Part shown: positions 3,001 through 60,070 of the stretch, in pieces | How the letters are laid out: every line of letters begins with the position of its first letter | How positions within the stretch are numbered: position 1 is the stretch's first letter | Assembly: GCA_965178125.1 (NCBI GenBank) | Contig: OZ237740.1 | Location: forward strand, 930,001-994,000 | Origin: Bilabrum cf. latius | Taxonomy: Eukaryota | DNA length: 64,000 nucleotides | Direction of reading: 5' to 3' | The notes under the pieces: model-generated | Told to the model about the DNA's origin: nothing | Seen by the model: only the letters and a program-made list of their open reading frames with translations | Database searches by the model: none | Made by a program: the position numbers and the translations under genes

Positions 3001-6000
3001 GAGCACCGCACGCGGAGTCAGGTGGCCCATCGGGTCTCGCTCCATGAAACCAGGGTCACCTTGTTGCAGCAGACCATAAGACACGCGGTCTACCTTACTG
3101 AGCGCATGCGGAATATACAGATTCAGCAGATCCCTGTTCAAGTTCAGCAACCGGATAGTCTTGCCTGAGCTGCGGGACATGAGCAGCTCGGATTCCTAGG
3201 AGCGGGATCCAGCCTCGCCTGACACGTACTTGAGAGCGGCTCGGATCACAAGGGGGTCAAGCTTGGAAGAAGTCACCTCGACGGCCTCGATTCGCTTCAG
3301 AGCATCATCTGCCGCGATTCCGTCCGCGTCCTTTTCGCTCGCATCTGCCGAAGTCGCTGCGGTTTTCCCCGGATCGCTTGCAGCGGTTGTGGAGATCAAC
3401 CAGTCCTCGCCGACGCACTCCTGCTCGAGCACCCACAGCAGTGACCACCTGGCTAGCTCCGGGAGCAGTTTCCGCTGGTACCACTACTTGTCTAGCAGGA
3501 CAACGTGTGGCACCGTCTGCACTGCGAGCTGTCTCACACCGTCTCGAAGGGTGTCGCGCATGCGCAGCAACAGCTCGGACGCATTGGAAGCAGTGCCTGT
3601 CGCACCCTAAAGCACAGGAAAATCCTCTGGCGAGTCGCCGTCGGCTGCGTCCCCAAGCACACCGGCAGGAAGCACGATGCGGGCAGCTGCAACGGTCTTC
3701 TCTGCAACATCACCGGAAGCACCAGACTTTGACTTGTCGTCGTCTTCGGCACTGGGCTTCCCTCCATCTGATCCGCTGCCAGACAGCTGCTCGCTGTACT
3801 GCGACGAAAGTGGTGGTACCTCAGGGGGATTCCCGCCCTCGGCAAGCGTCTCGGGCGAGCAACACGCCAAGAGCCCAGAGAGGATCCAAATTGGCATCAG
3901 CCATCGCTCTGGGCTAAGAAACAAGGGGTACTTCCTGTTCAGCGGAAAGTTCAGCTCGCTCTTCAGCGGTTGCACCACGAGATCCACTTCGTCCACGAGC
4001 ACGAGTCCGTTGTTATCCTTCGACCAAAGGCTCAAGATCTGACGGAGTGCCTCCGCACAGGCTTCAGTTGCCGTCAAACGCAAAGATTCCTCTTCGAGAT
4101 CATTTGCTAGATCCTCGCTCGTTTCTCGTATTTCAGATGGTGGCACAAACGCATGAGGTGGGGCCGAGCGCAAGTCCTGCATCATGTCCACGTACTGTAG
4201 CATGGCAGATTTGACAGCCTCAGGAGGGGCAATTACGATCGAGCCCCTGCGACGAGCCATGTCCAGTCGCTCCCATAGACGCCAGAGCATGTCGTGGTAC
4301 TTGCTGAGCTTCAAGCGACCCATCTGTGCGGCACTTGCTGAGACAACAACTGGGTAAACCTTGCCCTGCAGCTCTGTCCACACGTTTCTATCATCCCATA
4401 CCTAGGCGACCACAAAACCACGACTCGACAGAATGTCTTGAATCGGAGACTTTCCTGACTCTGCCACGCGTCGCTCCTCCCTCGTCCTGCGAGTGAGTGT
4501 GAACTCGGGCTCCACCACCAATGACTGCACCCCGGCGTCATGATCAGGGAGAGGACCTTGCTCCCCTTGCAGCTGAGGAATGACGAAGCGTTCGAACTCG
4601 AACGTGATCACCATTCTGTTAAAGAATGGCGCTGCAACCACTGATCTAAGCATGCGCCTTGACATGTCCAGCAGCGACGAGGGCACAACCGACGTCACCA
4701 AGGACTTCCCGTCACTCAAGCTTATGGCCAGCGCAGGCTGAATGACACTCGACTTCCCCAGGCCCATGATCGCCTAGATGATTCTAGATGGCGACTGCGA
4801 GCTCTGTGCCGATTCGAGGAAGGCATCGATCATCTCGACCTGCCTCCCGCGGAGCACGAAACCCGTCACAAGCTCCATAGCGAGGTACCGCGGATCAAAT
4901 GTCCATATGCAACGCCTAGAGTCCACCTGTCGCATGTACTGTCGTTTGCCAGAAATAAAAGAGGCAGCAGCGACCGATTTCGCTCTCGTGACCTTCACAT
5001 CTCCATCCAGGCTTGCACATGCAGACTGAAGCCAACCTTGCAGCGCACGATTTGATGCCTCGCTAGCAAGCACAGCTGCTTGCTGCGGTGCGTCCTGCAA
5101 GGCCCCGAGAACTACCGCGCAACCTTCTCGAGACTCAATCGCAGTTCCAATCCGAGCCTCTGCTGGCTTCTGAGGCAAGCCAGCAGTCTCTGCAGCTGAG
5201 CTGGAGCCAGCAGCTACCAGCAGCCGCTCCCAGTCCATAACTGGTGTCGTTGCGAGTAAACTGCCCACAGTATCACGCTGTCTTTTCCTCACAACGGAGT
5301 AGGCGTCTGTCATGGTGGCTTCACCTGCAGCTGCACCACTGCTGCTGGCTGGAAGTGGCTGGGAGGCCCCACCGTAGGCGAGGAATACCCGGACCCAGCT
5401 TCGCATCTTTCTGAGTCCTGATGCTGCATTGAACGGCAGGGAGTCCAGCTCTGGCTTCGAAAACTCGATCTTAACGCTGTCAAGATTGACCAACCTGTCT
5501 TCGGATGCCATTTGCGGTATCAATGCGCGCTGCACCTCCGATCTAGGGGGCCGTACCATCGCTGCCGGATCAATGTCACCCCAACCCTGCGCAGCAACCA
5601 CGCCCGAGGCAATGAGCTCGGGTAGCTCCGCTGTAATCCTGTTCCAAACGCTATCAATGATTATTCCTTCCAGCTGACGGCGCACTCCCCTTACCGCGTC
5701 TCTGCACTGCCTGGCTTGTTCGCCTCGCAAGGCGACTGCAGTGAGCACGGCAACAGCCTCTACCACAGTATCCACGGACTCGCTGGACAAGGACGGGTTC
5801 CATTGCCTGGAGACGATGCTTCGAGAGTTCGTCAAAAGCGTGGAAATAATCCTGCTGTATGTTGGTGGCGCCCGTTCCGACGAAGTGTGCTGCAACCGAA
5901 GCATGGCATTCCTTGTCACGGTGCCCTCATCTCGTGGGCCATCCGACCCATCCTGTGCGCCGGGACTAACGTTTTCTTGCTCGTTTTCGCTTGAATTTGC

Positions 6001-31984: not shown

Positions 31985-32108
31985 TGCTTAAAAATGGGGC
32001 GATTTTTGCTAAATCATGCGTGGCCACTCGTCACGTCAACACGGCAAACTGCAACTGCGAGAGCACAAAGTTATTGGTTCAAGCTAAGTGCACTAGACTG
32101 GATATACA

Positions 32109-39677: not shown

Positions 39678-39789
39678 TTAAGATGGTCGACCAACAAATT
39701 TCGCAAAACTTGGTTTGCCGGTGGTGTGTGACTCGAGCGCTAGAACACAACCTTCGTAATCTGCACACTCAGCCAAACACCACGACCCA

Positions 39790-42207
39790 ATGGTCTTTAC
39801 GGTGGGACTGCTAGCAATAGTTGCAGCTTTTGGTCTCGTACGCGCCACTTCCGTTTGCATGCTCTCAAAGTCTGTGTACCATCTGCCCGAGTTGCACTTT
39901 CAGCCTCGGGACGACTGGATCAACGTGAAAACGGATGAAAATGCCAAAGGCGATGGTGTAGCAGACGACACTGATCCTATTCAAAGAGCTTTTAGTCGAA
40001 TACAGGACAACGTGCAGGCGAACGGAACCAAAACGGTGTATTTTCCCCCTGGATGCTACAGGATCCGCAAAACTCTGGTTGCCAACCACACCCAGGGCGG
40101 CAACGTCTTTGGCACTGGTCGCAACACGGTGATTGCATGGGACGGTGATGCAGATGACCAGATGGTCTGGAGCGATGGAGCAGGGCGATTTCGTTGGGAG
40201 GGCTTGGTGTTCGCGGGCAGAGGCATCGCCGGTGTGGGCCTAGATCACGATTCGAAGTCTTACTACGAGTCCAGGGTGATGCATAGAAATCTTCACTTTG
40301 ACAATTTTACCGCTGCCGGCTTGCGAGATGGGCACAATCAGACCGTAGCTTCGGCGGAGATGATAGTTTCAAACAGCCTCTTCACTGCGGGTAACTCCGG
40401 GATCTCTTTCTTGCAATGGAACGACTACGACCTTCGCCTGACGGGGTCCGTGTTTTCCAATCTATAGATCGGAGTCAATGCCCAGGCCGGCAACTTTTAC
40501 GTCGACATGTGCAGGTTCGAGGGCTCGACAGACGTGGACATTGTCGTGCCCATCCACGGCCTGAGCGTCCGTCGATCCATCTCTCTGGGTTCCACAAGCT
40601 TCATTCGAACTACAAGCGGCACATATGCTGCCCCCATTATCATCAACGACTGCCAGGTTCACGGGTGGACAGGGACGGCAGCGATCAGCACGGACATAGC
40701 GGGGCCATTCACTGTGCTTGACCTGGCATTCCGGGACCCTGTCAATCCGTTCGCCGACGGGTGGGTGCTGAACCCAAGGGTCGGATCCAACACAACCGGG
40801 CCGGCCTATTCGATCATGCTCCGAGGAAACGTGTCGTACAACGGCAACGGCAGCGCGTTCAACTACCAGCCAGGGACCGCCCTCCTCGCCACCGAAGTGC
40901 AAGTCCCAAAGAGCGCGCCGCCGACTGCCCCGATATCGCGCGATACTGTGCCGTTCAATTCAAGCGAGTGGAATCGCTGGCCAAGAGGTCGAGTCTATGA
41001 TGCGGTGACCCAATTCGGCGCGCGAGCGGACGGCTCGCAGGACTCCACTCTGGCTATTCAGGCGGCCGTCGACCACGCCTCTACAGAAGGCGCAACGTCC
41101 GTCGCTTACCTCCCACCAGGAAAGTACATGATCAATGACACGATCAATGTCACCGGGTCGGATTTTTTCTTCGAGGGCAGCGGATACGGGACCATGTTGA
41201 CCGCAAACACCGAGCACTGGAGCGACTTCGGCAAGCCGCTCATTTCGGTTGGCTGCGCGAGCGGGGTCACCATCGGAAACATGCAAGCAGTCGCCGGCGG
41301 GGTTAATGAGAGTGCAGTGGGGTCCTTAAGGCTGGGAGCATGCAGTGCTAGCGACTAGTCGACCGTTGGTGGCACGCTCACCCCTGTTTCCCGATCCAGT
41401 GCCAGTGGGTCGCCATCGTCAGGTCGGATATCGCAGCGTGTCACTCTGGACGGATTCTTCGGGCAGGACGACCCAACCAAGAACCAGCCCGGTGTGGAGC
41501 TAGCTGGCCTGGGCCAGGGCGATGTTGTGCATGCGCTGCACCTGGATGGCTCACTCCGTGTGAGCAACTGCTCCGATGCCACGGTGCTCACCAACTTCCA
41601 TTGCGGGCAGGGGCTGACGGTGGAGGACGCGAGAGGAGACCGCGGGGGTTAGCTGGTGCAGCTGGTCCGCGTGTCTAGCGCCAAGTATCCTGTCGTTGAC
41701 ATCAGGGACTCGCTATCTGCGACGCTGCTGGACCACTACCACGAGGGTCAAGGAACGTTCATGAAGCTCTAGGGCGAGGCTCCGCCAGGCAAAAACCCCG
41801 GTATCGTGTCCGTCTCCAACCCCAAGCTCAACATCGGGGGCATCGCTGGAGCGCCGACCGTGCTGCTGCAGGATTTCGACGGGTTTGTGGCGCACACTGC
41901 TTCAGGCACTGGCTATGAGCAGGCGTCGTATTTGGAGTCAGGCACCAGGGCGAGCGCATCATCAATCCTGCTCGGTGGCAACGTGTACGACGATTTCGTG
42001 CCAGTCCTTCACTTCAGGAAGCCGAAGGAATCGCTGGTGCTTGCCGGTAATGTCGTTGAGTTTCTCGGCAACGACAGCCAGGTTCGCATCCCGGAAGCGG
42101 CGCCATCGCCCGCTGCACAGGCCGCATGGGAAGCTTTCTACACGGCCATTCGGCAGGCTGGGCAGCTCGATGTTCAGCTGAACTTCCCATAGCTCTCCCA
42201 TGATTGA
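39790..42207 (+). CDS. Secreted pectate-lyase-3 / GH55-like right-handed beta-helix protein with two helix starts, 805 aa, intronless
   Basis: Signal peptide; INVKTDENAKGDGVADDTDPIQRA...VYFPPGCYRI and DAVTQFGARADGSQDSTLAIQAAVD...YLPPGKYMI. Five in-frame TAGs, then TGA at 42205-42207. Confidence 0.8.
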
Positions 42208-42292
42208 GTATCGCGTTGGAGCTACGCCGCCACCTCCATCATGGAGCGCCAACAGCTGTTTGTAACGTATTGTGACTGGATAATACCAACGA

Positions 42293-42372
42293 AAATCTGC
42301 CAAATTCTGCCAGTTTCTGCCAGTTCTTGCCAAGAGCTGCCAGAATTCTGGCAGGACTTTTCTGGCCAGAAA
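42293..42372 (+). repeat. Left CTGCCA ~10-bp repeat cluster with two perfect palindromes
   Basis: About five (C/T)TGCCA units. CTGCCAGAATTCTGGCAG (42337-42354) and TTTCTGGCCAGAAA (42359-42372) are self-complementary. Confidence 0.75.
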
Positions 42373-44149
42373 TAGTCAATGACAGCCAGTACAGCCAGAA
42401 ATACTTGTGGTCAGACACACCATATATTGCACAGCGATGGACATGATTCACTTTAAATACTAAAATAAAAGACACTGCTGCGGGTACACGCCCTCAAGGG
42501 CGATACATGGGGCCAGTATTGACGAAAGCACAAATTCTCCCGCAGCACGTGAGCGCCCAGCTGCTGACACAGTGCTGAGTGCAAGTCTAACCAAAACAGC
42601 TTGAACTGCTTCACTTATTAGTACATACCATATTGCTGTATTCAAAGCGGTCAGGTCTGGGCAGATAGTCCGTTTGATGATGCTGGATGTATCGAGCTGC
42701 TGACAAGATGCCAGGTCTGACAAATTCTGCGAGCACTTCATCCTCATACTACAAGAGAATACTTTAATTACTAATAAACATCAATTGACGACCGCATATG
42801 CCGCTGTTGTGGGATGGTCAGTATCTGGAGTGTGTGTTGCTGTTGAGCGGTTTGCTCTCCATACACTCCGCGCAAATCATACGAAGAAAATGTACTGTCG
42901 CAAGCAGGTAAAGCTAGCACCTATCATACAGTGTATGTTGGCGTCGAGGTCTAGCAGTAGTCTTGCACCCAAGAAGGACATCTGCTTCAGTGTGCGTGTT
43001 TGCCCAATCCAAGGTGATTGCGGAAGCCTCTCAAGCAAGGGAAATCAGTTCAGTGCCTACCGAGCGATGCGTAAGTAGACTTGATGCCATGGGGGTAGTT
43101 CTGGGAATCGGCAACATGGTGGAGCTCCGGGGTGGCCAGCTGATGTAGATTCAATCGCGATCATAGAAGTGGGCAGACGCGCTGGGTTGCCGTTTGGTGC
43201 ATACTCGGAGGCGTCCTATTCCGCTCCATGCACCGTCTAGTCCTTTATCTTGTAGGTTCACGCGCGCAGCAAGGCACTAGTGCGGGTGGGCGTAGAGCGG
43301 ATTTCAAGAGGATAGTTGACAACGACAGATATCCAGCCACCTGCGTTACAACCTGCAATCATGGATAGTCGATACTGAATCCCCATCCTGAGTCATGTAA
43401 ATTGCCCGATACTAAGCCCTTGGGGTCTATAGATAACTGTAGTATCAATGGATTGCAGGAGGGCGACCTCTCGGAACGCAACGTTCAAAGATGGAGGCAG
43501 CCAATGATATCATGTTTACTCGGACATTAGGATTGAAGCGACGGGGAGCAGAGATGAGCTGGAAGACGAGGCAGGCACAGGCGAGGATAGTGCGGTGTCA
43601 ATAGGTAGAACACAACGGGAGGAATGGGGCCCCAGGCGCCAGGCACAAGGGATACGCGAGTGGTAGCGGGCTGCATGGTAAGCAGCGCACAGGTGGCCAA
43701 CAGGCAGGTGGGTAGACGAGGCGCAGGGGAAGGTCGGCCAAGACCTGCACGTGCTAGCTGTGGTTTAAGGAACAAATCTGATCTCAAGCCTAGGTCTAAG
43801 TTCAACTCTAGGATGCGGCCCAGTGGCAGCGCATCAGAGCAGTTCAAGCGAGACGAGTAGGCTCGTCGTAGGCCTATCCATAGGATCGGATAGAAGAATC
43901 TCAGGTGGCGACGTCCAGCCTTGTACAATGCATGATAATACAGCGGAGGCGAATTGGAATCGAGAAACAAGTGGTGCTAGACATTGTCTAAACGAGCGGC
44001 TTATATGCGCAAAGCAATCAGGATCCATCAGATCACGATAAACAAAACAAGTGATCAACAAGATAACAATACACGAATAAGCAACTCAAGTGGCAAAAAA
44101 AACAAGTAATGAAATATTACAAACCCAACATCAATCTAAATATATCGCA

Positions 44150-46355
44150 AGCCCTCCCTCCCCCTCTCCACCTCACACCCGGCCAGCCACAGCACCAGCT
44201 CGCACTGCCCTCGAGGACATGACGCCGATACTGCACATGGCTCCCTCCCCCTCTCCACCTCACACCCGGTCGCCCACAGCACCAGCTCGCACTGCCCTGG
44301 AGGACATGACGCCGATACTGCACATGGCTCCCTCCCCCCTCTCCACCTCACACCCGGTCGCCCACAGCACCAGCTCGCACTGCCCTGGAGGACATGACGC
44401 CGATACTGCACACGGCTCTCGTCCCCCTCTCCACCTCACACCCGGTCGCCCACAGCACCAGCTCGCACTGCCCTCGAGGACATGACGCCGATACTGCACA
44501 TGGCTCCCTCCCCCCTCTCCACCTCACACCCGGTCGCCCACAGCACCAGCTCGCACTGCCCTGGAGGACATGACGCCGATACTGCACACGGCTCTCGCCC
44601 CCCTCTCCACCTCACACCCGGTCGCCCACAGCACCAGCTCGCCCTGCCCTCGAGGACATGACGCCGATACTGCACACGGCTCCCTCCCCCCTCTCCACCT
44701 CACACCCGGTCGCCCACAGCACCAGCTCGCACTGCCCTCGAGGACATGACGCCGATACTGCACATGGCTCCCTCCCCCCTCCCCACCTCACACCCGGTCG
44801 CCCACAGCACCAGCTCGCACTGCCCTCGAGGACATGACGCCGATACTGCACACGGCTCCCTCCCCCCTCTCCACCTCACACCCGGTCGCCCACAGCACCA
44901 GCTCGCACTGCCCTCGAGGACATGACGCCGATACTGCACATGGCTCCCTCCCCCCTCCCCACCTCACACCCGGTCGCCCACAGCACCAGCTCGCACTGCC
45001 CTGGAGGACATGACGCCGATACTGCACATGGCTCTCGTCCCCCTCTCCACCTCACACCCGGTCGCCCACAGCACCAGCTCGCACTGCCCTGGAGGACATG
45101 ACGCCGATACTGCACACGGCTCCCTCCCCCTCTCCACCTCACACCCGGCCAGCCACAGCACCAGCTCGCACTGCCCTGGAGGACATGACGCCGATACTGC
45201 ACACGGCTCCCTCCCCCCTCCCCACCTCACACCCGGTCGCCCACAGCACCAGCTCGCACTGCCCTGGAGGACATGACGCCGATACTGCACATGGCTCTCG
45301 TCCCCCTCTCCACCTCACACCCGGTCGCCCACAGCACCAGCTCGCACTGCCCTGGAGGACATGACGCCGATACTGCACATGGCTCCCTCCCCCTCTCCAC
45401 CTCACACCCGGCCAGCCACAGCACCAGCTCGCACTGCCCTGGAGGACATGACGCCGATACTGCACACGGCTCCCTCCCCCTCTCCACCTCACACCCGGTC
45501 GCCCACAGCACCAGCTCGCACTGCCCTCGAGGACATGACGCCGATACTGCACATGGCTCCCTCCCCCCTCCCCACCTCACACCCGGTCGCCCACAGCACC
45601 AGCTCGCACTGCCCTCGAGGACATGACGCCGATACTGCACACGGCTCCCTCCCCCCTCTCCACCTCACACCCGGTCGCCCACAGCACCAGCTCGCCCTGC
45701 CCTGGAGGACATGACGCCGATACTGCACACGGCTCTCGTCCCCCTCTCCACCTCACACCCGGTCGCCCACAGCACCAGCTCGCACTGCCCTGGAGGACAT
45801 GACGCCGATACTGCACACGGCTCCCTCCCCCCTCTCCACCTCACACCCGGTCGCCCACAGCACCAGCTCGCACTGCCCTGGAGGACATGACGCCGATACT
45901 GCACATGGCTCCCTCCCCCCTCTCCACCTCACACCCGGTCGCCCACAGCACCAGCTCGCACTGCCCTCGAGGACATGACGCCGATACTGCACACGGCTCC
46001 CTCCCCCTCTCCACCTCACACCCGGTCGCCCACAGCACCAGCTCGCACTGCCCTCGAGGACATGACGCCGATACTGCACACGGCTCTCGTCCCCCTCCCC
46101 ACCTCACACCCGGTCGCCCACAGCACCAGCTCGCCCTGCCCTGGAGGACATGACGCCGATACTGCACATGGCTCTCGTCCCCCTCCCCACCTCACACCCG
46201 GTCGCCCACAGCACCAGCTCGCACTGCCCTCGAGGACATGACGCCGATACTGTACATGGCTCCCTCCCCCCTCCCCACCTCACACCTGGTCGCCCACAGC
46301 ACCAGCTCGCACTGCCCTGGAGGACATGACGCCGATACTGCACACGGCTCCCTCC
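44150..46355. repeat. Tandem minisatellite, 25 copies of an 87/88-bp unit
   Basis: Unit CTCCCTCCCC(C)TCTCCACCTCACACCCGGTCGCCCACAGCACCAGCTCGCACTGCCCT(C/G)GAGGACATGACGCCGATACTGCACA(C/T)GG. I counted 25 occurrences of GAGGACATGACGCC by hand. Confidence 0.97.
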
Positions 46356-46768
46356 TCTTTTGCACCTCGCAATCGGTTGTTGGTTGGCGTTTCCATTGAG
46401 TAGTTGTTGTACAACAATGAGTTGAGTTCAATGCGGGAAAAGGATCTGTATTAGATAGGGAAGGCATATATATTCAGATCCGGTGCTACTTATCATTAAC
46501 TACAACTACATTATCGTAGATTAACAGTTAAAATTAGTCAGCGGTTGACACGCTAAGACAAGAGTGAACACAAACAACTTGAAGGTTTTGCGATAGCTTA
46601 CAGTCGAACAAGTCCATATCTTCCCTAAATACCAGAAAACACAAGCATAGCTGTAGCACGCTGCCTAAACATGAACGATAGTTAGCAAATTTGAAAACCA
46701 GTAAGTGTTGGTATCCAGTTTTCGCCATGTCCTTGTAGCCATTCTAACAGCCGTGCAATGCATTTTTC

Positions 46769-46845
46769 TTTCTGGCAGGAACTGGCAGGAACTGGCAGAA
46801 ACTGGCAGAAACTGGCAGAAATTCTGGCAGAAATTCTGGCAGAAC
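46769..46845 (+). repeat. Right CTGGCAG 10-12-bp tandem repeat, seven copies, inverse of the left cluster
   Basis: tctggcagga actggcagga actggcagaa actggcagaa actggcagaa attctggcag aaattctggc agaa. Confidence 0.85.
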
Positions 46846-46963
46846 GGTTCCGTCAGACACAATACAGCGACAACACGCGCCGGAATTGTGGCTCCGGGCG
46901 ACACGCTTTGCGATCCCCAACAAAACAAATATTCGCGGTGCCCTGACTTCTTCCGAGACTACA

Positions 46964-49900
46964 ATGTCCTCTGCGCCAAATATTCACGTAGTAGTATCAT
47001 CCGTACTTCCATCGGTTGCAGTGGAGGATATTTGCACACCCGAGTTGAAGTACCCACACACGCTTGATCTTGAACTTCAAATTGGAGCTGCTCCATGCGG
47101 GTTACACTCGCAACCTTTGCCCTCCATGAACGTTTGGTGGCTTTGCGTTAGCGAAGATATTTCATTAATTGGAATATGCTGCACTCAAGAAAGACGGGGT
47201 TCCAAAAAACGAAAGCGAACGGCCGGTACACTTGGAGAGTCGGCGGATGCTGCAAAAAAGTGGTTTGCAGCGCAAATGAAGGCGTCGGGTGAAGTCTCCC
47301 CACGAATCACATGTTTTCCTGTCTCTAGGTCTTCATATTTGCTCGGGCCCATGCTTCGACTGGGCAATAGGCACAACTGCTTGTCGCTTGCACATTTGAA
47401 GCGGGGCGATGCAGCGATCGATGCGAACAGGGTCACGCTGGTGTGGGGAATGGAGCATGGAAGGGACGTGAATTGGGAGGGACTTATATCCGACGGCCTG
47501 CGACATGACTTTGTGCAGCTGGCCCGCGTGACTGATCACCCGGCCATTCGTTCCCCTGTCGTGCGCGGAGCTGTGCTAGGGCATGCCAAGCAGGCCGGGA
47601 CTGGTGGTCGAGATGGATGGCTCTGCCAGCACATTGAGTCGGGTATCGATCCAGAGGAGGCTGAGTCTCGGTATGCCCGCCGAAGCCCAGCGCTGTCCCA
47701 GGGAAGCGAATCGCCCGGCTCATGCTCATGCTCGCCCACGCACTCGCCCATAGTACTCGCTTGCCTCAGGCATCCTGACCGAGTGCAGCGGCTGGCATAC
47801 CGCCTAGCCCGGGCCAATCGTCTGGAGGGCAGGCTCACCAGGCAGAGCGCGGCGGCATCGTCGGCTGAGATGCTTTACGGCCTGCCTCTGCCCCCAGTGC
47901 GGGGGCTCACCGCGAGGGAGCGTGACTTCCTCTCCCCCCTGCCTCGAACGCTGCGGCCAGACTAGAACAGGTCGCTAGCGTTCCTGCGGGAGATCGAGCA
48001 CGATGGGTGCGTTATCCGGCAGCCGCCCGCAGCTGCTTTGCACGAAGCTGACCTTTGCACCAGCGAGTCGTTCGGATCCGCGTTCGAGGTTCCGATCCGT
48101 GCTGGGTCGGGTATGTAGCAGTCGTAGCGTGCCATGAACAGTAGCGATTCGGGCCGATATGATGATAAGGAAGACTCTGCCGCTAGTGCAGGTCGCACAG
48201 GTGGTGCAGATGCGGGTGATGGACCTGTGTCCTTATCGAGTCAGGCCAGCTCAGCAGCGGGCGCTAGCTCTGGAGTCGCTGAACCTGCTGCCTCTGAATC
48301 AGCCGATGATACTGCCGGGACCATACAGACTGGCCTGTGCGTGACGGTGAAGCTATGGTCTTCCCCCTCGGTAATCAGACGGCCTGCACTCTCCGAGATC
48401 TTCAGCGAGCACCGGTTCAACTTTTACTTCCGGCGCATCCCCTTCGCACATTCGTCAAGGCTGCTGTCGCTGCGTGGCTCCCCGTCCCGTTCTAGTGCGG
48501 CATCTCCATTGCGCTCTTCGGAATAGGCGGGCACCTCACTGCAGCACGACGAAGTTGGCTCGAGAACCAGCTCTGTGGCTGGGACTGCAATCTATTACAA
48601 CACAGTCGCGCAGAACCACATCGAAACAGATTCTTCGATCCGGCGGGGCTGGCAACTCCACCGCTGGAATGGCGGTGGTGTGCTGGCAAGCGAGATGGGC
48701 TTGGGCAAGACCAGCGTGGCGGTTGGGCTCGTCTACCTAGACGTTGTCGATCCCGCTCGCAGCACTGGGAGGGTGCTGCAATCGGAACAGATAGCTGCGC
48801 AGCTGAACGCCCCAGTGGCGCAGGCGCTCTTCAAGGCCGCCGGCCGCGGCGAGATCGTTGGGTTTGCGCAGAGTCAGGAGCAGCAGGAGGAGTCCCGAAG
48901 GCATGCAATGGCAAGGTACCTGGGTCTGCCCGCCCCCACTTCGAATGCGGAGCTAGCCATGAAGCGAGCAGTGTGGTTTGGCGAAGTCGACGACATGCGC
49001 ATGCCCAAGCATCCTAGGGGCTTCGGATCTCACTACGTTGTGGACTCTGACATCCTGTCCTCGGTGGTCGCTGTGCCAAAGAGTGCGTCTAGTGCGCATG
49101 CGGATGGTACGGACGATCTGGAGGATCTGGAAGATAACATGTCGGAGTGCAGCGTCGAGTTCTTGCTGGAGGAGCATGGCGAGGTCATGGACATGAGGGA
49201 GGTATGCAAGCGCGCTGAGACTGTCACTAAAGGGACAACAAAGGGCCGGCGGGGATCTGCTACCAAGAGGGCAGAGCTTGGCTCGACTTCGTCGTTCAAA
49301 GCTACCTTGGACCAGGCCGGGGAGGTCCCATCGAAAGGCTCTCGCTGGAGCGATGGCACTAAGCTGGCAAGCAGCGCCTCGATTGAGGTGCTGGATGAAA
49401 GCGACGATGAGCAAAGCAGCGCTGGAGTCGTTCGACCCCAAGGATGGTCATCCATCCAGCCTGTGCAGGATCGTCTTGTGGACCGCAAGGGCCCAGTCAG
49501 CGTGATGCAAACCACCAGGCGAGACAATCTGATCTAGACTCAATCAACGCTGATCGTGGTTGATTCGGTTCTCTTGGATCAGTGGGTGAAGGAGATTCGG
49601 GCGACTGTTGGTAAACGGCTACGGGTGCACGTTTATTGCGGCATTTCGCAGACTGGCACCCTGCGGCCAGGGACCGATTGGGACCAGGTGCTGCGGTTAT
49701 ACCGGGCGTCGTACGGCTCCAATCCGGATCAGAGCGGGCCCGGTGATGCTAGGCCAGGTCTACCCTCGATGGAGTCCACCGATCGAAATGCAGATAGATT
49801 TGCCGCGCAGAGCGAAGCAACGTTGACACCATAGGAGCACAAGGACTTGATCTAGCTGCGGTTACTCCGCAGCTGCGGCCTGCTGCCGGATGGTCCGCAC

Positions 49901-52900
49901 CGGCTGCGGTTGGCAAAGCTGGAGTGCCTCGCAATGTGCAATGCCGACATTGTGCTAGCAACCTACAACACACTCAGACAAGAGTTCGCGCTGTCCAAGT
50001 CCGCGAGGCGCTCGTCGCGAGTCGAGACCGAGCGCAAGTCAAAGACCGCACCTCCCGTCACGCCGCTACGTCGCATCGAGTTCCGCCGGATGGTCATTGA
50101 TGAAGCGCAGCAGGTAGCGAAATCAAGTGCTGGTCTCGGCATCCTGATGAAGATGCTCACTAGGATAGAGGCGAAGAGGCGGTGGTGCGTCTCTGCCACC
50201 CCGCTAGGAGACGCGTCACTGCCTGCCATGTTCGGCCTACTTCGATTCCTGCGCCACCCGCTGCTTGGAGACGACAAGGTGTGGCGTGATCTTGCCGAAC
50301 CTCTCCTTGGGCTGGGGTCAGTGGATGCCTCCGTGGAGATGCTCAAGTACATGGTGGAGACTTTCTTTTACAGGCAAGACCAGTCCGCTGTGGAGGGCCT
50401 GTTCCTGCCCAGGCACACCTTCACGGTCAGAGTGCAGCCAACCACGGCAGAGCGGGAGAGGATCCGCGAGATCGAGGGCAGGGCGTGGACCTTGCTGCAA
50501 GACACTCTCAAGTAGCAAGCGGGTCTTCAAGGTCGAGCTGCCCAGACTGGTGAGGATGCCTGGGTCTCTGCTGGCGGAGGCGGTGCAGCCTAGGCTGACG
50601 GCTCCACTGGCAACCCTCCAAATGGAGAGAGTGGTGATTCAGAGGTCGCCCCACGAATCAGCCTGGACAGAATCCCAACGTACGACCACTCTCAGCTACT
50701 CACGCTTTAGCAAACTCTGCGGAAGATGCTTGATCTCAGGCACAAGATTTCGTATGCGAGAGGCGGCAAAAACTCCAAGCAGCAGCAGTCACAGGAGCAG
50801 CTATTGCGAGGCATTCGGATCCGATGCGCACAGCAGCATGAGGGCATCCGGAGGCAGCTCTGCTGGCGATGGCAGCACCTGGCTGAGATGCTTTTCCGGT
50901 CTGCCGCCTGTATTCGAACCGTGCAGCCGAGCGAGTACGCTTCGCTGCGAGAGCTGCTCACACAGGGATGGACGGTTCCCAGGGTGTCCTTGTCCGCTGA
51001 GGGCTTCCTGTCCAGCTCGACTGGCAGCCAGTTGAATGGGGCGGAGACTTCAGATGCAGGCGCGTGGCTGGATGCTTCGCTCGTGTTCGAATTGGGGCGA
51101 GCCATTGTGGGCGACTAGGAAGCAGCTGCGATTGCCCGCGTGTTGCGCTTGGAGAAGAACGTCACGAGGGGAGCACACCCGACAACTGCCCTCCTCCACG
51201 CGTCTGCGACGAGGCAGCTGCCCCTGGATGTTGAAGCTATCCGATCCAAGATGGGGGTCTCAACTAACGACGAAATGTTTGGGGATCTTGAGATGGGAGC
51301 GCGGCAGCTCATCCGCCTGTCTGCGGCGAGCAGTGATATCACGAGTGGCAAGGCTTAGCTGGGTTCAGAGTATGGCTTTGACTTCGAGGGCTGGAGTGGC
51401 ATGCTGCTGGCTGCTAGCCGCGACCAAGTCGAGAGAACTTACGTCGCTGCGTACGGTGACGGGGCTTACTTCCAGCACCGTGGATTCTGCGCGCGGCATG
51501 GGTTTGGAGTGATCGAAAACCAGATCGATGAGTACCGTCAGGCCTTACTGAGTGAGATCTCAGCGCGTTGTGTCGCATCTCGCGTCCTGCAGCTCCGCAA
51601 CGCCGACGTAGAGTACGCCGATGTGCGGCACACCTCCGGCGAGGCCGATTGGGAGTATCAGGACGAGTGCGATAGGCTGCAGAATGCGGTGATTGAGAAC
51701 GCAGACGATTCAGCTGGGACTGATGAAGACGTGGAGAGGGCCGGTAGCAGCGCCGCACAGTCCAAGTCCGGTGATTCCCTTGCTTCGGTGCTTCCGTTCT
51801 AGCAGACGAAACAGCGCTGGTGCGCACGCCTGCGTGGGTCGATAGCAAGCCTGAAAGAGCGAGGGGCTGATAGCAGCCGCCGGCAAAACGCTGCGCCGGG
51901 CAGCTCAGCAAGCTCGGCCGCCATGCCAAAGCCGCCTGCTTCGCTCCAGCGCTCAGCCTCGAGTGCAGGGGAAGATCGGTATCGCAAGCTGTACGTCGGA
52001 ATGCACTCTGCCGTCAGCAACGCGAAAGACATCGCTGACAACCGAATCGACCCCATCGGCCCGACACTCTTGCGATTACACCGCGGCACGATAGGCGGAA
52101 TGCCTGCGCCGGATTTCTTCAAGGGCTTGCAATAGCGCAAGGATCACATTGAACGGCTGCTGGCCTTATTCGACAAGATGCATCCAATGCTGATTCATTT
52201 GCAGCTTCTACCCAGGCTGCTCTTGATCGAAAAACAGGAAGATCCTGAGAGCGTGTTGAATGCAGCCCGCACGTTCATTGCTCCCCCTACCGTTCTTACC
52301 CAAGACATGGTGCATGCAACGCCGGATGGCAGAGACGGCCGGGAAGACATGTGGCACAAGAGCTGGGACAGCAGCGTCGATGCCTCTCAGGCGGACAACG
52401 TTGAAGAAAAGGGTAGTACCGAGGCAGCGGCAGCAGCACGGAGTACCTCCGCATCCGCTCCCATGGAATCCGAGGAGAAAGACAACGAGGAGGATGCAGG
52501 CAACGCCAAATCGGGCACGGATGGGCATGATCAGGGCACTTCAGCCAGGGCGGCGGCGGAAGATACAAGCCGCCACCCGCTTTGTCGCAGGGGACAGGAG
52601 GAGGATTTGAACCTGCGAATGGATCCGAGAGCGTTTGCGATCCTCGCCGGAGTCCGAGCCGCACTGCAATGCTACAGGGAAGCTCAAGACGTCGAGGTCG
52701 ACCGCGAGACTTTGGAAGACGAAGAGAGGGGCACCCTTCAGTGGAGTCTGCTTGAAATGCGCAATGCTGCCTTGTTGCAAGCTGTCGCAAGAGCCTTTGG
52801 TCGCTTAGATTGGCAGGAGGAGTGCAGGCGACAAAAACGAAGGAAGGTGCACCTGTACGTGCAGACGAAGGCAAGGCAGCTTCGAAAGCACTTCGTCATT

Positions 52901-55417
52901 CTGTAGGAACACATCAAGACGGCCTACGGCATTTCAAATTCGTTCAATCAAGACGCAGACTGTGTCGATGGAGAGAACGGCCAGGTTCGGCTGGCGAAGA
53001 GCGCGAGCACGGGGTCTGCAAGCGCGGCATCATCGGTGAGCATGCGGGACGATGGAGACGAGGATGCGGATGTAGTCGTCACCTCAAGTGCGGCCGGCTC
53101 GAGCACGGAAGGGAAGCACGCAGGAGCGCCTCGGGGGCTGCATGCCTGGCTGGACGGGTCCACTGTGCAGAACTCGAGTGGAGAGCGAGCGGACGGGACT
53201 TCACGTCCAGTGAATGGAGATTTGAAGGCGGTCACCGCAAAGCTCCAGAAGGACCTTTGTCACTTGGCAGAATTGACTGCATCTACTGTGCTGGCCGATT
53301 TGCAACGGGCAGTCGAGAACTCGTAGTCTTTTGACGAGAGGACAAGGAAGTGGATTCAGATCGAGCAATCGGTGATTGTGCAGCGCTGGAACCTGGTGAA
53401 ACCAGGTTCGGACGGCCGCCCCGAAGTTACCAGTGTGCGAGAGTACGAAAAGGCCAACGCAAGAATATTGGCCGCTGCAAATGCGCAGCTTCATGCGCTC
53501 CTGAGAGGAACAGATGATGTACCATACCCTTTGTCAAAGACGAGGCCGCGGCTGCTCAGCAGCCTGTCGCTGGAATGCCTTCACTAGATGCGTTCGCACA
53601 TTGAGGCGTCCCGGCTGCAGGCAGGTGTCCTCCTTTCCATACGGAACTAGGCCGCTGCGACGTACAAGGAGCTGCGGGGCATATGCACGGGGATGGACTA
53701 CGTCACGGACATGAGCAGCATCCTTGACCCCGTCTCGCACAACGACGCCGATTCGGGCCGCTGGAGTGACGCAGATGAGATGCCAAACTCAAGGATGATC
53801 GGCCTCGTGCGAGATGCACTGCGAGGGATTGCTGGAAGCGAACGGTTTGTGCAGCCCAGTGCATCTTAGGCCGAAGACCCCTCCAAACGAGCGGGTGCCC
53901 CACCGGACACGTGGCATCGCAGGGCAGGTATTGATCGTGGGCTGCACGAAATTGCAGACCTAGAGTCGCAGTCAACGAGAACGTTCAACCTGAAGCTCGA
54001 GCAGGACAAGAAGTTTGCGCTGCTCCAGCAAACGATCAAGCGGGCCGACGGCGCGGGGCTGGACCCTGGCAAGGCCGATGAGCTTAACCTGCCGCAGTGC
54101 GCCGTCACTATGTGCGTGCCTATCCATCCAGTAATGGTGCCTTGCTGCGGCAGTACGTACGAGCGCGAAGTTCTCGAGAAGTGGATTCGACAGAAGGGGT
54201 CTTGCTGCCTATGCCGTAGCCGGCTCACGAAGGACCAGATCATCTCGCTGGAGACCAGCACAGTCGCCGAAGAGTCTGGTATATTCCACGTGTCACACCG
54301 CAACCCATAGCAGCAGGTTCAGACGCTCAAGGCAACCAAGAACGCGCTGCTAGCTCAGGGCAAACTGGACTAGGGCTCGGCTGCAATGCATGCTGAGGAG
54401 GACGACGACATGAACCGACACTCGTCTGATGAAGATGACGACGAAGATGAGGACGAGGATGAGGACGAGGACGAGGAACCAATCGTTGCACGAAGAAGGG
54501 GTGGCGCCGGTGCTAGGCGAGCTGGTCGAGGCAGAAGTCGCCGCTATGACGCCGATACTGCTGCAGCCACCGCGGACACTGAGGCTCTGCTGCTCGATCC
54601 TCGCCCAGGGAAAATGCCAGCGGCTCCGTGGGAGAGGCGGACGCAGGTGCCCGCCCACCTTCTACCGGTGGCAAACTACGCACTGCCTGCCGACTCTGCC
54701 ACGAGCAACTCCGAAAAGGTGGGCGATTTCACGGCAAAGATCGCCGTGTTGATCCGAAGGACAAAGGCACTGCCAGCAGACGAGCAGGCCGTCGTCTTCG
54801 TCCAAGACTCGGGCATCGCGCAGCTAATCCTGAAGGCATTCTCTGGTTCTGGAGTGAAGGCGATCGGCATTTTGGGCTCGGAGCAGCAGCAGCGTGAGTC
54901 CATGCAGAAATTCGGCGATGGCGTTGCCAGGGTTCTCGTGCTCGACTACCAGCGGGGCGCCAAGGGACTCACGCTGAACCAGGCCAACAACGTGTTCCTA
55001 GTGGACCCGGCGCTGCCACACACAGAGGCACAAGCAGTATCCAGGGTGTGGCGCTATGGTCAGCAGAAACAGGTAAACGTGTTCCGAATTGTGCTTGAGG
55101 ACTCCATGGAGGAGCGGATGTTGCTTGCCAAAGATGCATCCAAGGACCGTCCCGCCAGCGAGCCAATGGACGTTGTCGAAAACGATCAGCAGGACGACGC
55201 GATTTTGCGTGATGCATTGCGCGTGGAGCCGGAGACAGCATGGCAAGAAGCCCCAGCGGTGCACCTCGGCGAGCTAGAGATCAAGTCTATCGGCGACCTT
55301 GCCTACATCGTCGGGGCCAAGCAAGGGACAGCTGGAAACAGCGGCACGGCTGCTTCGGTGGATCCGGGAGATGAGGCTAGCAGCGCTGCGCAGGCCATGG
55401 TCGATGATTTTGAATGA
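46964..55417 (+). CDS. SNF2-family ATPase, SHPRH/Rad5-like, with U-box/RING-like domain, ~2,800 aa
   Basis: TLRPD*NRSLAFL (Q motif), GGVLASEMGLGKT, TLIVVDSVLLDQWVKEI, ADIVLATYNTL, RRMVIDEAQ, RWCVSATP, GAKGLTLNQANNV, QAVSRVWRYGQ. Fourteen same-frame ORFs are joined by TAG; ends in TGA. The start and any 5' intron are uncertain. Confidence 0.85.
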
Positions 55418-55485
55418 TTTCTCTATAGATTGCTTCGTCGACTAGCTCACAAATCTTCACAATCACCCTCTACACTGCCGGCCGG

Positions 55486-58400
55486 TCAATCCTCGTCAGG
55501 TGCTGCGGTATGTACGTCAGTAAATGAGCTCATCTGCTCCACCCCCACGTCAGTGGATTGGGGAGAATTGGACCCGACACTACTTGTGTACCACTCCATC
55601 GCTTGAGAATTCTGCCTACTTCTATTAGACGCTGCGCTGAGTACACGAACCCGCGCCACACCGTGGCTGGTTGCGCCTGGTCCAGCTGAAAATTGACCAG
55701 GCATCGGCAAGTCTGCTGGTTCATCAACATGATCTACCAGATGCACAGCCTCGTGTCTGACACTGGTACTCGTGCCCATCACATGACTGTCTCCGCCCTA
55801 TCCTATCTCTGAGCTGTAGGTTTGCATCGGGCCCACCTAAGCAGTCACGACAGCAACCGAGCCGTCTCGCAACGCACTTCCTGTTGCACCAACTCGGCTG
55901 GCGCCACCTCGAATTCGAAAACCAGCCTCTGGATCGAGTTCATGCTATGCTGCAGCGTGAAGAACAGGTGTATGGTCCTTGCGCCTTTCACTCGGTAACC
56001 CTGCCCAAGCTGCGGCGTCGACAGCGCATGGCGCAAGTTCAACCGCCTGCCTTGAGCGAGACTACAGCCTCATGGGCGAGAAAATGGGAAGCATGCGTTG
56101 ATCTTCCTGAAGCTTAGCCGCGTCTGTGAGCCGTGCAATCCGTGCTAGAGCTCCTTCTGGCTAGTGCGGGACTTGCGCATCTCCGTCCACTAGGTTTGTC
56201 TGCAAGGATACGGTCATAGTCCCGGCCCCAGCAGCACTTGCTGCGCGTTCGGCGGACACAATGTGCGTGGTTCCACCTGCGAGAAGTTGCTCGCATTCAC
56301 TTATCGTCGAAGATGCTAGCTTTTTGCTACTAGTCGCAGACTTTCGGGCTTGTGTTGCTGCCGGTTCTCCCACCATGCCTGCCTCCAGTAGTTCCCCAGT
56401 TGCCTCTTCAAGCGCGGCAGCTGCTAGTTGAGCTTGCTGCGCTGCTTCGATGCCCATCTCAAGCGACTCTGGTGTTCCTTCTCGCGAAACCATCGTGGCA
56501 TATCCGTTGTATGCACTGGTCTGCAGGGTCAGCGCGGCGAGTTGCAGCTGCGGAGTGGTGGCATCAAGAGGAGTCCGGTCGTACCCAGCCTCGGCCGGCA
56601 GCTACCCGCGTGCAATGGCAGCTGATATTGCCCCTGCCCGGCGCATGGCTTCCTGAGGGCTGACTCGCAGCTGAGCGAGGATCGCACGCGCTGCCTCAAC
56701 TGCACCTCTGCCGCGACGTGCTGCGCTTGCACCTAACTGCTCCAGCCATCGTGCGAAAATGAGCTACACCTGCAACACAGGACAGGGAATGTGCAGCGCG
56801 CTGAATGTGGTCTCCTAGCTCTGCGCAATGGCATCCTCATCATCACTATCAGATGGAGCTGGGACGAAGTCTTGCGTTGGCAGAGTGCCATCCAAGACTG
56901 CTTGAGCGAGCACAACTCCAACTGCCGCGATCCTGCCGAGCCGAAGAGCCGCGTCGGCCAGTGCCACAACGAACTAGGAGTCAATGCGTGCTCCATTTAG
57001 TCTGGATGGGCACCCGTGTAGCACATGTACATCATCCAGGGCCATGGCTGCTCTAGCAGCTAGGGCGGCCTGCACGCCCTCCACTACCTAGATGCATGCT
57101 GTAGCTCGCTGCACGTGACCTTCAAGAGGCAGCAGTGGAAGCTGCTTGCCCTCCACGACGCACGCACCCTGCAATACCCCCAGCACGCTTCCCATCCACG
57201 CATCCCCGAATCTAGTCCCGGCCAAGCAAGGAAACGTCCGGATCGAGGCCTCTGGGTCCACGCTCTCGCGAATTGCCATTTCGTTTCTCAGTGCAACCCA
57301 CGCGCACCTAAAGCCCTAGCCCGCATTGCCGTGCTCCAGCGCTTGCGAAGCCAGAGCCAGCATGCAGCGGTCATACTGCGCAATAACATCGCTGGGAACT
57401 CGCACGCCGAGGCAGATGCTTGGTTTTGATTTCTTGCTGGCATCGGTCGATTCACCGCGCCAGGCACACACGGTTGGTAGGTCTGGCAGGCCCATGTAGT
57501 TCTTCCTGCCCTCTGCCTTGACCTGTCTCGCTGTCTAGTTGTGGTCGATTACGCACACGGGGCTGCAGTGGAAAGCAACCCATTCGTGAGCCTGGGATGG
57601 CATGTCATGCTCATCTTCGCGGCGAACTGCCAGCTGCGCAGAGAGTCCAGGCAGCCCGCTGAGAACAACAGTCGCCGGTTGACCCAAGAGGCTGCGAAGC
57701 GTCCGAGTGGCTTTCCACCTGCGTCTAGCATCCTCCTGTGCGTCGCCGATGGACTAACGGCGTGCTGTGGAGTCGTACAGCGCCTCGAGCGCGGACAGGC
57801 GGCGGATGGGCTTGGGAGGTGCCGGTGCGGTGCCGCTTATTGGGGTACCTGCTGAAGTTGGTGATGCAGCTATGTTGGGAAGAGCCTGCTTGGATGTGTG
57901 GAGCACTGAGACAGCAGTGCTGGATGGAATTGCCGCTAGACCACGAGTCTCTCGCTTGTCCAGGGCATCAAAACCTTCTGCTGCTTCGGCACGCTGCCTG
58001 GCCTGCGATTGAATGGACCGCAGGGGGGTGGTACCGTTGCGGGATTCACACCGCTTCCAGTTGTCCACGACAGCATCTAGAGATTCCTGGGCAACTTTTG
58101 CCCCTAGATTGAGAGTGTCTAGCAGTACGTCGGCCCATTCAGAGTCAGCAGTCTCCCGCGCATGCCCTGCACATTGGTCCATGCTACCGCTCTCAGCTGT
58201 GTTCTCTATTCGTGCAAGCGCAGACCGGATGGCCGCGCTTGATGCCTTCTTCAGAAGTGCACCCTTTAGGGTCTTCTCATCGTCGTTTCGCTTGTAGCCC
58301 GACTTTGGCGCTAGTGCCGCCAGTGTTTGCGCTGGCAGCTGCAGACGCTCGCCCGCAAATACAGCTGCGGCTTTGCATACCTCCTGCAGGGCAGCGACAA

Positions 58401-59871
58401 GGTTGCCATCGCACACACGCGACAGAGCAGCCGCAATGCACAAGCTTACTACTCTAGACTGCACGCTACCCGCAGCTCGTTGAGCAACCGACCGCAGCAC
58501 GCTAGCCACCGATGTGCTCGTGTGCAAGGGCGCTAGGTGCGCACCAAGTCGAGCAATGGCACTGCTTCTACCGCTTCTTCTTGCCGCAGTCGACTTTCCG
58601 CCACCCGCGCTTCCCTTTAGGGACATGACTGAGCCTTGGCGGCTCTGCAGGAGACCTGAGGTGATAGTCTGTCTGGTCTCGCGAGGGCCGCCTCCTCTAG
58701 TGGCCGCCACGGTACCAAAGCCGCCGTCCACCGCACGTCGATCAACTCCAACACGAGGGGCCGCCGTTTCAACCGCGCCATCGTGTTCGGCTAAATCAGC
58801 TGTTTTCACTGCTCCATCGGCCTCCTCCATTCCAGTAGCGGCGCCAGTCGCGGCCAGCGCCGTTCTGAACCCCTCCATGGCCGCCTGTCTCCTCGACGCC
58901 CTTGCCTCGTCGACCGCCCTGTGGGTAGGCGCGAGCTCCGCCAGCCTCTCCATCTGCTCCTCTTCCCGTCGACGGGCACCCAGTGCCCCGTATAGCCTAG
59001 CGCGCATGAGGTACAGCTCTGGTTCCTTCGGCCGCAGCACGATGGCCGCGCTGACATCGTCCAGGGCGAGATCCAGGCGGACCATGTGGGTGCGACAGGC
59101 TGCACGAAGGAAGTACAGGCGCCAGTCCAGGGGCTCAAACTCAAGGGCAGCGCACAGCGTGTGTTCTGCCGTCTGCCACTCTCCAGACGAGCACAGCGCG
59201 CGCGCCAAGGCGAGCTGCATGCGCGCCACAGATCGCGGGCGAAGCGCTGCTTGCTCCTTGGCAAGCGCCTCGAGCTCCACGCGGACCTCGTCTTCCGTGA
59301 TGACTGGCAGTGACAGCTCGGGCTTCGGTGATCCAGCGCCGTGCGGTGGCGGATCTAGCATTAGATCTGGCTTACTCTCATACACGCCGGCAACCGGAGG
59401 TTCCCACCGTACCGACTACAAATCACAGCCGTCGCGAAGCAAGCGGTTGAGTTGCGCTCGCTTTGTCCGACCCTCTCTCGATGCTGGGGATGGATGGCTC
59501 AGCGGCGTGGATGCTCGGCTATCCTAGCGTTGTCTTGAGCTACCTGGTCGCCTGTGAGTTTTGGCCGCAGCCATGAGCCGCTTCTGCAGCTCGGCCGTCG
59601 ACTGTCGATGTGATTCCGCAACAGCGGACGCACCACGGACTCGTAAGGCCTACGCCAGATCCTCTGTTGCAGATCGTAGATCCAATAAACCCAGCCACGC
59701 ATGGCTACGCACTAAATGAGCCCCAGCAAGCTCTGCAGGCAACCGGTTGGGGTCATTGATTGCCATGGTTGAACACCGCAAAGCCGAGTCATATCGCCGC
59801 GCCGCAAGCTATCTGCGAGCCAGCGCGAGACACACATCGCTTGCAATAATATCTCTACGAACACCTTCCAT
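55486..59871 (-). CDS. Tetratricopeptide-repeat protein, ~1,460 aa (an extra 5' exon is possible)
   Basis: TPRs: LARALCSSGEWQTAEHTLCAALEFEPLDWRLYFLRAAC...ALDDVSAAIVLRPKEPELYLMRARLY. Hand translation stays open except for TAG from 59871 to TGA at 55486-55488. A TTAACAG acceptor-like site lies near 59908. Confidence 0.7.
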
Positions 59872-60070
59872 TGAGATCAAGACAGGTGCTCGCCTTTCGA
59901 TGGCATCCTGTTAATGAAACGGGTCGCAGCCAGATGGTCGCACTTTACTTTTGTGGCGTGCGAAATTATGAAAAGTCTGGTATTCGGCTGGCTCTCGTCT
60001 GGTCTCACGATTGTTTTGGGCCTTGCCCAGCCGTCCTACGGGATAAATCGTATTTTACCGACCCTGTACC

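Follow-up and report, generated by a model that had tools for sequence, protein, structure and literature searches.

In a 64,000-nucleotide stretch of the Bilabrum cf. latius genome assembly (Eukaryota; contig OZ237740.1 of GCA_965178125.1, forward-strand positions 930,001 to 994,000; hereafter the window, numbered from its first letter), a gene for a large Snf2-family ATPase carries an in-frame TAG triplet at 47963-47965. We consider it likely that UAG is an ordinary glutamine (Gln, Q) codon in this genome, with UAA and UGA as its stop codons, and that this particular triplet, codon 406, stands at the Gln column of a diverged Q motif. A previous reading made from the letters alone (the sequence-only reading) had described the TAG as lying in frame within PRTLRPD[TAG]NRSLAFLREIE, which the sequence and translation of 47945-48000 confirmed and which direct translation of 47942-48000 on the + strand reproduces. 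The triplet belongs to a stop-to-stop frame at 46748-55417 that, when TAG is read as sense, comprises 2889 codons, of which 21 are TAG, lacks TAA and TGA internally, and closes with the TGA at 55415-55417, while under translation table 11 the same gene breaks into pieces, the longest of which is 405 codons. The gene and the two elements of it that concern us first are as follows:

46964..55417, + strand: the gene from its first ATG (codon 73 of the stop-to-stop frame) to TGA, with 21 in-frame TAGs

47951..47998, + strand: Q-motif-like segment LRPD[TAG]NRSLAFLREIE, residues 402-417, set against the family consensus LRPYQrrAVaWMlxRE

47963..47965, + strand: TAG codon 406 of the SNF2-RING-helicase gene, Gln in the relative protein P0011

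The seven long frames of the window together contain 97 in-frame TAG and no in-frame TAA or TGA in ~17,000 codons; their sizes in codons, with the number of TAGs in brackets, are 5886+ (30), 3900 (13), 2889 (21), 1626 (6), 1474 (17), 1263+ (5), and 815 (5). Across the six frames of the window, TAA and TGA together number from 167 to 497 per frame in ~21,300 codons. Tens of these triplets would thus be expected in 2889 random codons, and since none was seen, the SNF2-like frame is open far beyond chance. The counts also separate TAG from TAA, as the seven frames hold 97 TAG against 578 CAG and 0 TAA against 165 CAA; from the TAG/CAG ratio ~28 TAA would be expected, and their absence indicates that TAA is not part of the reassignment. 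Within the window, the 3′ ends of the five closed main frames are four TGA and one TAA, and two further small frames also terminate in TGA. Pfam domains flank TAGs on both sides in the window’s long frames.

Comparison with close relatives points to the identity of the amino acid. These relatives consist of protein fragments, evidently called with the standard code, and of contigs from one sequencing run (X10). The relatives found in protein libraries are all fragments, of 61-435 residues. One of them (P0011, 93% identical) has Q at the position of codon 406, with RPDQNRS across the site (...SPLPRTLRPDQNRSLAFLREIE...), as well as at window TAG 457, and its frame is open over codons 406 and 457 under the standard code; a second (P0159, 90% identical) has Q at window TAG 2053. 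Five fragments terminate exactly at window TAG positions (460, 593, 930, 1029, and 1256), a sixth ends one residue short of window TAG 2374, and two stop before the window Gln codons 2167 (CAG) and 1210 (CAA). At the nucleotide level, contigs of run X10 span the whole 13.6-kb stretch 46500-60100 at ~92% identity with 1123 differences, and the codon comparison rests on 40 of these. Among the 40 are five interchanges between TAG and CAG, and no other codon swaps with TAG:

48116..48118, + strand: TAG codon 457, CAG in the ~92% identical relative (48116 T>C, X10, two contigs) and Q in P0011

50708..50710, + strand: TAG codon 1321, CAG in the ~92% identical relative (50708 T>C, X10)

50792..50857, + strand: window CAG codons 1349, 1351, and 1370, TAG in the relative (50792, 50798, and 50855 C>T, X10)

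With Gln as the meaning of TAG, this set has 38 changed codons, 29 of them synonymous, and 24 of the 40 changes fall in third positions. Considering all relatives that are at least 88% identical, Gln is found at four of the five window TAG sites that they cover (406, 457, 1321, and 2053) and glutamate (Glu, E) at the remaining one (2301); counted over distinct sites, the partner of TAG is Gln at seven of eight and Glu at the other. In a more distant relative (P0009, with 46% identity across the part that aligns), five window TAG sites, which lie in a region of poor conservation, correspond to D, L, S, L, and E, and P0006 (17 TAGs), used as a query, retrieved one fragment, which spans no TAG. 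The immediate neighborhood of TAG gave a mixed result, Gln being 1.42-fold enriched beside it, yet with a likelihood that ranks L, R, and K above Q.

Outside the SNF2-like gene, a TAG in another of the window’s long proteins falls on a column that is informative by itself:

4774..4776, - strand: TAG within SRII[TAG]AIMGLGKSSV, at a conserved Gln column immediately ahead of the P-loop in the DUF3638 domain of a protein of 5886+ residues (Pfam)

The same 161-residue stretch was scored against Pfam under all 20 meanings of TAG, and Q gave the best score at 55.7 bits, followed by K (52.3), R (52.0), N (51.8), E (51.7), the unspecified residue X (51.3), L and Y (both 51.1), and W (50.6). Since Q leads by 3.4 bits over the next residue (4.0 over E and 4.4 over X), this column is a strongly conserved Gln. 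At three weakly conserved Pfam columns (residues 236 and 533 of P0005 and residue 930 of P0001), K, Q, and E lie within ~0.5 bit of one another, with W and L 1-2 bits lower at residue 236 of P0005. The DUF3638 TAG is a cleaner conserved-site test of TAG as Gln than the Q-motif site. The proposal of the sequence-only reading that UAG encodes Gln is therefore supported by evidence independent of the Q motif, namely the relatives, the TAG/CAG interchange, and the DUF3638 column, whereas its ranking of codon 406 as the strongest single-site evidence was not upheld, because the Gln codon that the relative has there and the DUF3638 site carry no less weight. The SNF2-like site is good single-site evidence, though not the strongest available.

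The protein in which codon 406 lies was characterized by its domains, of which those downstream of the Q-motif-like segment are listed here:

48590..48712, + strand: ‘IYYNTV’ element and motif I (GLGKT at 48698-48712), family hidden Markov model (HMM) E = 3.6e-9

48650..50467, + strand: SNF2-rel_dom match (residues 635-1240, profile positions 8-250), Pfam PF00176, 92 bits against a cutoff of 24.9

54098..54247, + strand: cysteine-rich RING/U-box-like segment between the ATPase lobes (residues 2451-2500), Pfam, below cutoffs

54776..55060, + strand: Helicase_C lobe (residues 2677-2771) with motif VI QAVSRVWRYGQ, PF00271, 25.7 bits against a cutoff of 23.5

The stretch matched by the family HMM reads AIYYNTV...GGVLASEMGLGKT and corresponds to the block found downstream of the Q motif in this group, while motifs Ia (TLIVVD) and III (SATP) lie within the SNF2-rel_dom match and motif II (DEAQ) at 50099-50110. 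The RING-like segment scored 15.3 bits as a U-box (cutoff 21.4) and 10.7 bits as zf-RING_2 (cutoff 27.3), and the C-lobe resembles the solved C-lobes of ISW1 and RAD5 (E about 1e-10 to 1e-11). A HMMER search with residues 350-1260 retrieved 1058 proteins at E <= 0.001. Eight long homologues were scanned by Pfam, and six of them carry SNF2-rel_dom together with Helicase_C, each with a RING match; a RING was above a Pfam cutoff in five, present only below cutoff in one, and not detected in two, and the other domains seen were PF21325 (three of eight), PF21324 (two of eight), PHD (one of eight), and a bromodomain (two). A word-indexed search of residues 370-700 against proteins of 1588-5056 residues gave no full-length match, and a scan of JGI metagenomes produced a single locus (L001, 24% identical), which was not used.

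The window protein is like SHPRH, Rad5, and HLTF in that SNF2-rel_dom and Helicase_C are both above cutoffs with a cysteine-rich RING-like piece between the lobes, in that its best full-length homologues carry SNF2, RING, and Helicase_C and in some cases the SHPRH helical domains, and in that the order LRPYQ..AV.WM..RE, then YYN, then GGILADEMGLGKT is probably present in it. It differs from them in its length (2889 residues, ~2-fold the usual, with large low-complexity inserts), in a RING that stays below cutoffs, and in a candidate Q motif that has Asp for Tyr, Phe-Leu for Trp-Met, and an insert of ~200 residues downstream. The SHPRH helical domains (PF21325 and PF21324), PHD, and H15 were not detected in the window protein by Pfam at E up to 1; owing to these missing SHPRH-specific domains, we classify the protein, by its predicted domain content, as an SHPRH-like Snf2-family ATPase and not as an SHPRH orthologue. 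Its group is presumably the one known as Rad5/16-like.

Whether codon 406 is the Q-motif Gln of this ATPase was assessed with a profile of the motif, and we judge from the alignments that it probably is, short of proof. The profile was built from 62 homologues chosen by a pattern that requires Q, which biases it toward Q. It matches 117 of 143 homologues, the other 26 being fragments or starting beyond the motif, and those gained by the profile, which had not been chosen by the Q pattern, all have Q as well. The sequence-only reading had quoted LRPYQxxxxxWMxxxE with a conserved Gln as the consensus, and this agrees with the one derived from the 117 homologues, in which the counts are L 106, R 67, P 73, Y 92, Q 115/115, W 112, M 98, and E 115/115; in the homologues, the Y of LRPYQ is position 1 of Pfam SNF2-rel_dom. 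The window segment shares L, R, P, R, L, A, and E with the family, and its F for W and L for M are found in 5 and 10 homologues, respectively. With the Q column omitted, residues 402-417 outscore every other position of the protein in the ungapped profile comparison (3.46 bits, the next being -5.8), a value reached at 0 of 15,095 positions in six other window proteins (maximum 2.85) and by 0.13% of the 3000 sequences obtained by shuffling the N-terminal 640 residues (p ~0.001). In hhalign, residues 300-640 have a sole local match, residues 401-421 on the Q-motif columns, with E = 0.084 when the TAG is X and 0.0076 when it is Q. The distance from L402 to GLGKT is 249 residues, in a family range of 29-262 (median 84).

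The check that had been proposed, an alignment to the SNF2 N-terminal HMM and to SHPRH orthologues, gave a divided answer: the generic Pfam match begins at W635 (profile position 8) and does not reach the site, whereas the profile of 117 SHPRH-like homologues has its best match at 402-417. Extending the Pfam match backward from W635 puts D628/S629 on the Y/Q columns, and so there is no rival Q motif beside motif I, although the codon 406 site is not thereby confirmed. MAFFT never aligned the window motif with LRPYQ, either in the alignment A1 or in three modes on 14 homologues. An AlphaFold2 model of residues 385-1260 made with alignment A1 had a mean pLDDT (predicted local distance difference test) of 51 with the RecA-like parts folded; the motifs were unaligned in its input, and it therefore gives no verdict on the docking of the motif. 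The Asp that precedes the TAG is kept in the close relative as well. Further downstream, at 48138-48203, 64 bases of the low-complexity insert that follows the Q-motif-like segment are replaced by 82 others in the ~92% identical relative, which fits a fast-evolving, unconstrained insert.

A number of results weigh against the reading given at the outset, and most of them concern the Q motif. Where 115 of 115 homologues carry Y, F, or H immediately ahead of the Gln, the window has Asp (47960-47962), and the Arg of column 14 (R in 99 homologues) is Ile; judging from these substitutions, the motif is degenerate in this lineage, and its Gln may be under less constraint than in the family at large. 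Whether the TAG was entered as Q, X, E, L, Y, W, or K, the 40-residue segment by itself matched no Pfam family. When X was entered, the HMMER Q-motif profile found nothing in the whole protein or in its N-terminal 640 residues, and hmmalign left the Q-motif states unaligned; HMMER finds the segment solely with the TAG typed as Q, and then weakly (E = 0.03-0.1). A first, crude position-specific scoring matrix gave p = 0.055 over the whole protein, and in the AlphaFold2 model the part containing the segment (model residues 1-240) has a pLDDT of 32-37 and no secondary structure. Two results touch the meaning of TAG itself: a relative fragment that is 98% identical (P0161) has Glu at window TAG 2301, and two fragment ends precede K and R codons, although these may be contig ends. 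The doubts about the motif are what an alternative would draw on in which TAG is Gln and residues 402-417 are a chance resemblance or a decayed remnant, the site then being uninformative on UAG: the Pfam SNF2-rel_dom match starts only at residue 635 and the segment alone has none, hmmalign with X fails to place it, hhalign with X gives E = 0.084 and the crude matrix p = 0.055, conserved columns have changed from Y to D and from R to I, and the modeled segment is disordered. We nevertheless regard this alternative as unlikely, since the segment has the best ungapped score even without the Q column (with the shuffle and control frequencies given above), the same 16 residues were picked by three different methods, the order is right (Q motif, insert, YYN, and motif I) with spacing inside the family range, and no other candidate was found. 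The claim that the TAG sits at the conserved SNF2 Q-motif Gln can thus be kept as a probable one, the segment being the best and only credible candidate, with the reservation that Pfam and hmmalign do not place it.

The remaining explanations concern the meaning of TAG and are less probable still. It could be a sense codon for another residue, with Glu as the best alternative, or be read ambiguously, as might be suggested by the Glu of P0161, by the near-equal scores of K, Q, and E at the three weak Pfam columns, and by the neighbor-context test, which failed to single out Gln. A change from GAG to TAG is, however, a single transversion and Q to E a common replacement, so that one Glu is to be expected, while Gln is present at four of five window TAG sites in close relatives, all three TAGs of the relative are CAG in the window, the Q-motif column is invariantly Gln, and the DUF3638 column favors Q by at least 3.4 bits (4.0 over E); we therefore hold a meaning other than Gln to be improbable. 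Editing of U to C in messenger RNA, which would turn TAG into CAG under a standard genetic code, would leave the protein unchanged and would equally let TAG and CAG interchange between relatives. It would require about 100 site-specific edits in 64 kb, and a decoding rule for one codon is a better fit to the absence of TAA from coding frames in which CAA is common. To our knowledge, U-to-C editing on such a scale occurs only in some plant organelles, and we give this explanation very little credence. Least probable of all is that the TAGs are real stops, the frames being pseudogenes or the TAGs lying within introns, as the fall of the gene into pieces of at most 405 residues under table 11 would have it. 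This is refuted by the counts (97 TAG and 0 TAA/TGA in ~17,000 codons), and it also conflicts with domains that stand in correct order across many TAGs, with differences from the relative that are mostly synonymous (29/38 codons; 24/40 in third positions), and with a relative whose frame, read in the standard code, runs through codons 406 and 457.

With UAG as Gln, the events at codon 406 can be pictured as follows. In the genome of the window, UAG would serve as a sense codon for Gln, with UAA and UGA still terminating translation. The TAG at 47963-47965 would then specify Gln-406 of a Rad5/SHPRH-kind Snf2 ATPase of 2817-2889 residues, predicted to have a SNF2 lobe interrupted by long inserts of low complexity, a RING-like segment, and Helicase_C, and residues 402-417 would be the diverged Q motif of this lineage, separated by a putatively disordered insert of ~200 residues from the YYN...GGxLAxEMGLGKT block. 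The codon would be decoded by a transfer RNA for Gln (tRNA-Gln) with anticodon CUA, which reads UAG but not UAA, and the release factor would presumably no longer read UAG; the 64-kb window contains no tRNA genes. In other lineages in which UAG is Gln, a tRNA-Gln(CUA) reading UAG and not UAA, and a release factor that does not compete at UAG, are described (PMC11687900). As to the function of the residue, Gln-406 might contact the nucleotide in the manner of the Q-motif glutamines of other superfamily 2 (SF2) enzymes. Such glutamines contact the adenine in several SF2 enzymes. The statement of the sequence-only reading that this Gln binds the ATP adenine accordingly holds as a general SF2 expectation and goes too far as a fact about Snf2 enzymes: for the SWI2/SNF2 protein SMARCAL1, motifs Q and I are reported to be required for the hydrolysis of ATP but not for its binding (PMC4608764). 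The Asp in place of Tyr may mean that this ATPase binds its nucleotide in an atypical way.

The genomic setting was described from the window and from public sequencing runs. The window has a guanine-plus-cytosine (GC) content of ~0.6, is gene-dense and apparently intron-free, and has very long genes. The small number and great length of these genes argue against a virus, and for the USP domain the ESM Atlas gave the taxon Eukaryota. The neighbors of the SNF2-like gene are eukaryote-type and include a USP9X-like deubiquitinase, the DUF3638/DUF3645 giant protein, a lectin/TIG protein, a pectate-lyase-like protein, and a teneurin-type EGF protein. In the pectate-lyase-like gene (39760-42207), a TAG at 42190-42192 lies only five codons ahead of its TGA. 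GC drops to ~0.52 (versus ~0.60) at 30001-32000 and 42001-44000, where the coding strand switches, and both stretches probably lie between genes or are regulatory. Upstream of the SNF2-like gene, the gap holds a tandem array at 44154-46355 (88-bp unit, 25 copies, 95% match), where one strand is C-rich (GC skew -0.43 over 44001-46000), and just upstream of the first ATG, at 46772-46844, within 46500-46953, lies a 10-bp repeat, CTGGCAGAAA, in ~7 copies. Contigs over 46500-46876 have ~20-fold the depth of neighboring single-copy contigs in run X5 (103 versus ~5), from which the stretch 46500-46953 is probably a multi-copy element. By contrast, the contig depth of 600-2500 from all four runs at 54431-54477, an acidic low-complexity stretch of GAC/GAG repeats that encodes a D/E run, is a simple-sequence artefact and not copy number.

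The stretch 46500-60100 was found in runs under four different organism names from four studies; runs X5, X6, and X7 contain long pieces with 0-1 differences from the window, and a fifth run, X10, contains the ~92% identical relative. The window sequence is also present at a small share in runs labeled as protist or algae metagenome. It may be that the organism accompanies other cultures or samples without having been noticed.

The type of code is known, and the window is a new or unrecognized example of it. UAG as Gln with UAA as a stop is what we take to be NCBI translation table 15. Nuclear genomes with this assignment are reported for the fornicate Iotanema spirale, the ciliate Protocruzia tuzeti, and phyllopharyngean ciliates twice independently (PMC11687900, PMC5304391). 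The window is like these in that TAG is frequent in frame, interchanges with CAG, and stands on conserved Gln columns, and in that TAA and TGA serve to end genes and do not occur within coding frames; it is unlike them in being GC-rich (~0.6) with very long intron-free genes. With these properties the window does not, on our understanding, resemble a ciliate macronuclear genome. A second type, in which both UAA and UAG are Gln, is reported for Amoeboaphelidium protococcarum, ulvophytes, Hexamita, Streblomastix, and many ciliates (PMC5304391, PMC6299283, PMC11687900). The window shares with this type the reassignment of a stop codon to Gln in a nuclear genome and differs from it in its TAA, which is found in frame 0 times versus ~28 expected and ends one gene. 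A literature search by features alone, which is a weak search, returned no GC-rich, intron-poor lineage with a UAG-only Gln code. It is conceivable, though we hold this only tentatively and think it somewhat doubtful, that a GC-rich eukaryotic lineage with few introns, as yet undescribed and belonging neither to the ciliates nor to the fornicates, has independently reassigned UAG alone to Gln while keeping UAA and UGA as stops, that at least two diverged relatives (~92% and ~55% identical) share the trait, and that the lineage is present unnoticed in runs filed under other organisms.

For the ATPase, the Q-motif site is an illustration of the code and not a discovery in itself, and it would be a useful internal control if the enzyme were studied. 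For annotation, the consequence is that standard gene callers fragment these genes, and genomes of this organism will be mis-annotated unless the right code is used. Nuclear codes that give UAG and UAA different meanings are rare, and the papers cited name few such lineages (PMC11687900, PMC5304391). Such codes bear on how changes in release factor and tRNA separate the two codons, and the window offers a clean and easily checked case, with ~100 TAGs but no TAA used as sense codons in its 64 kb, and with a close relative in which TAG and CAG exchange freely.

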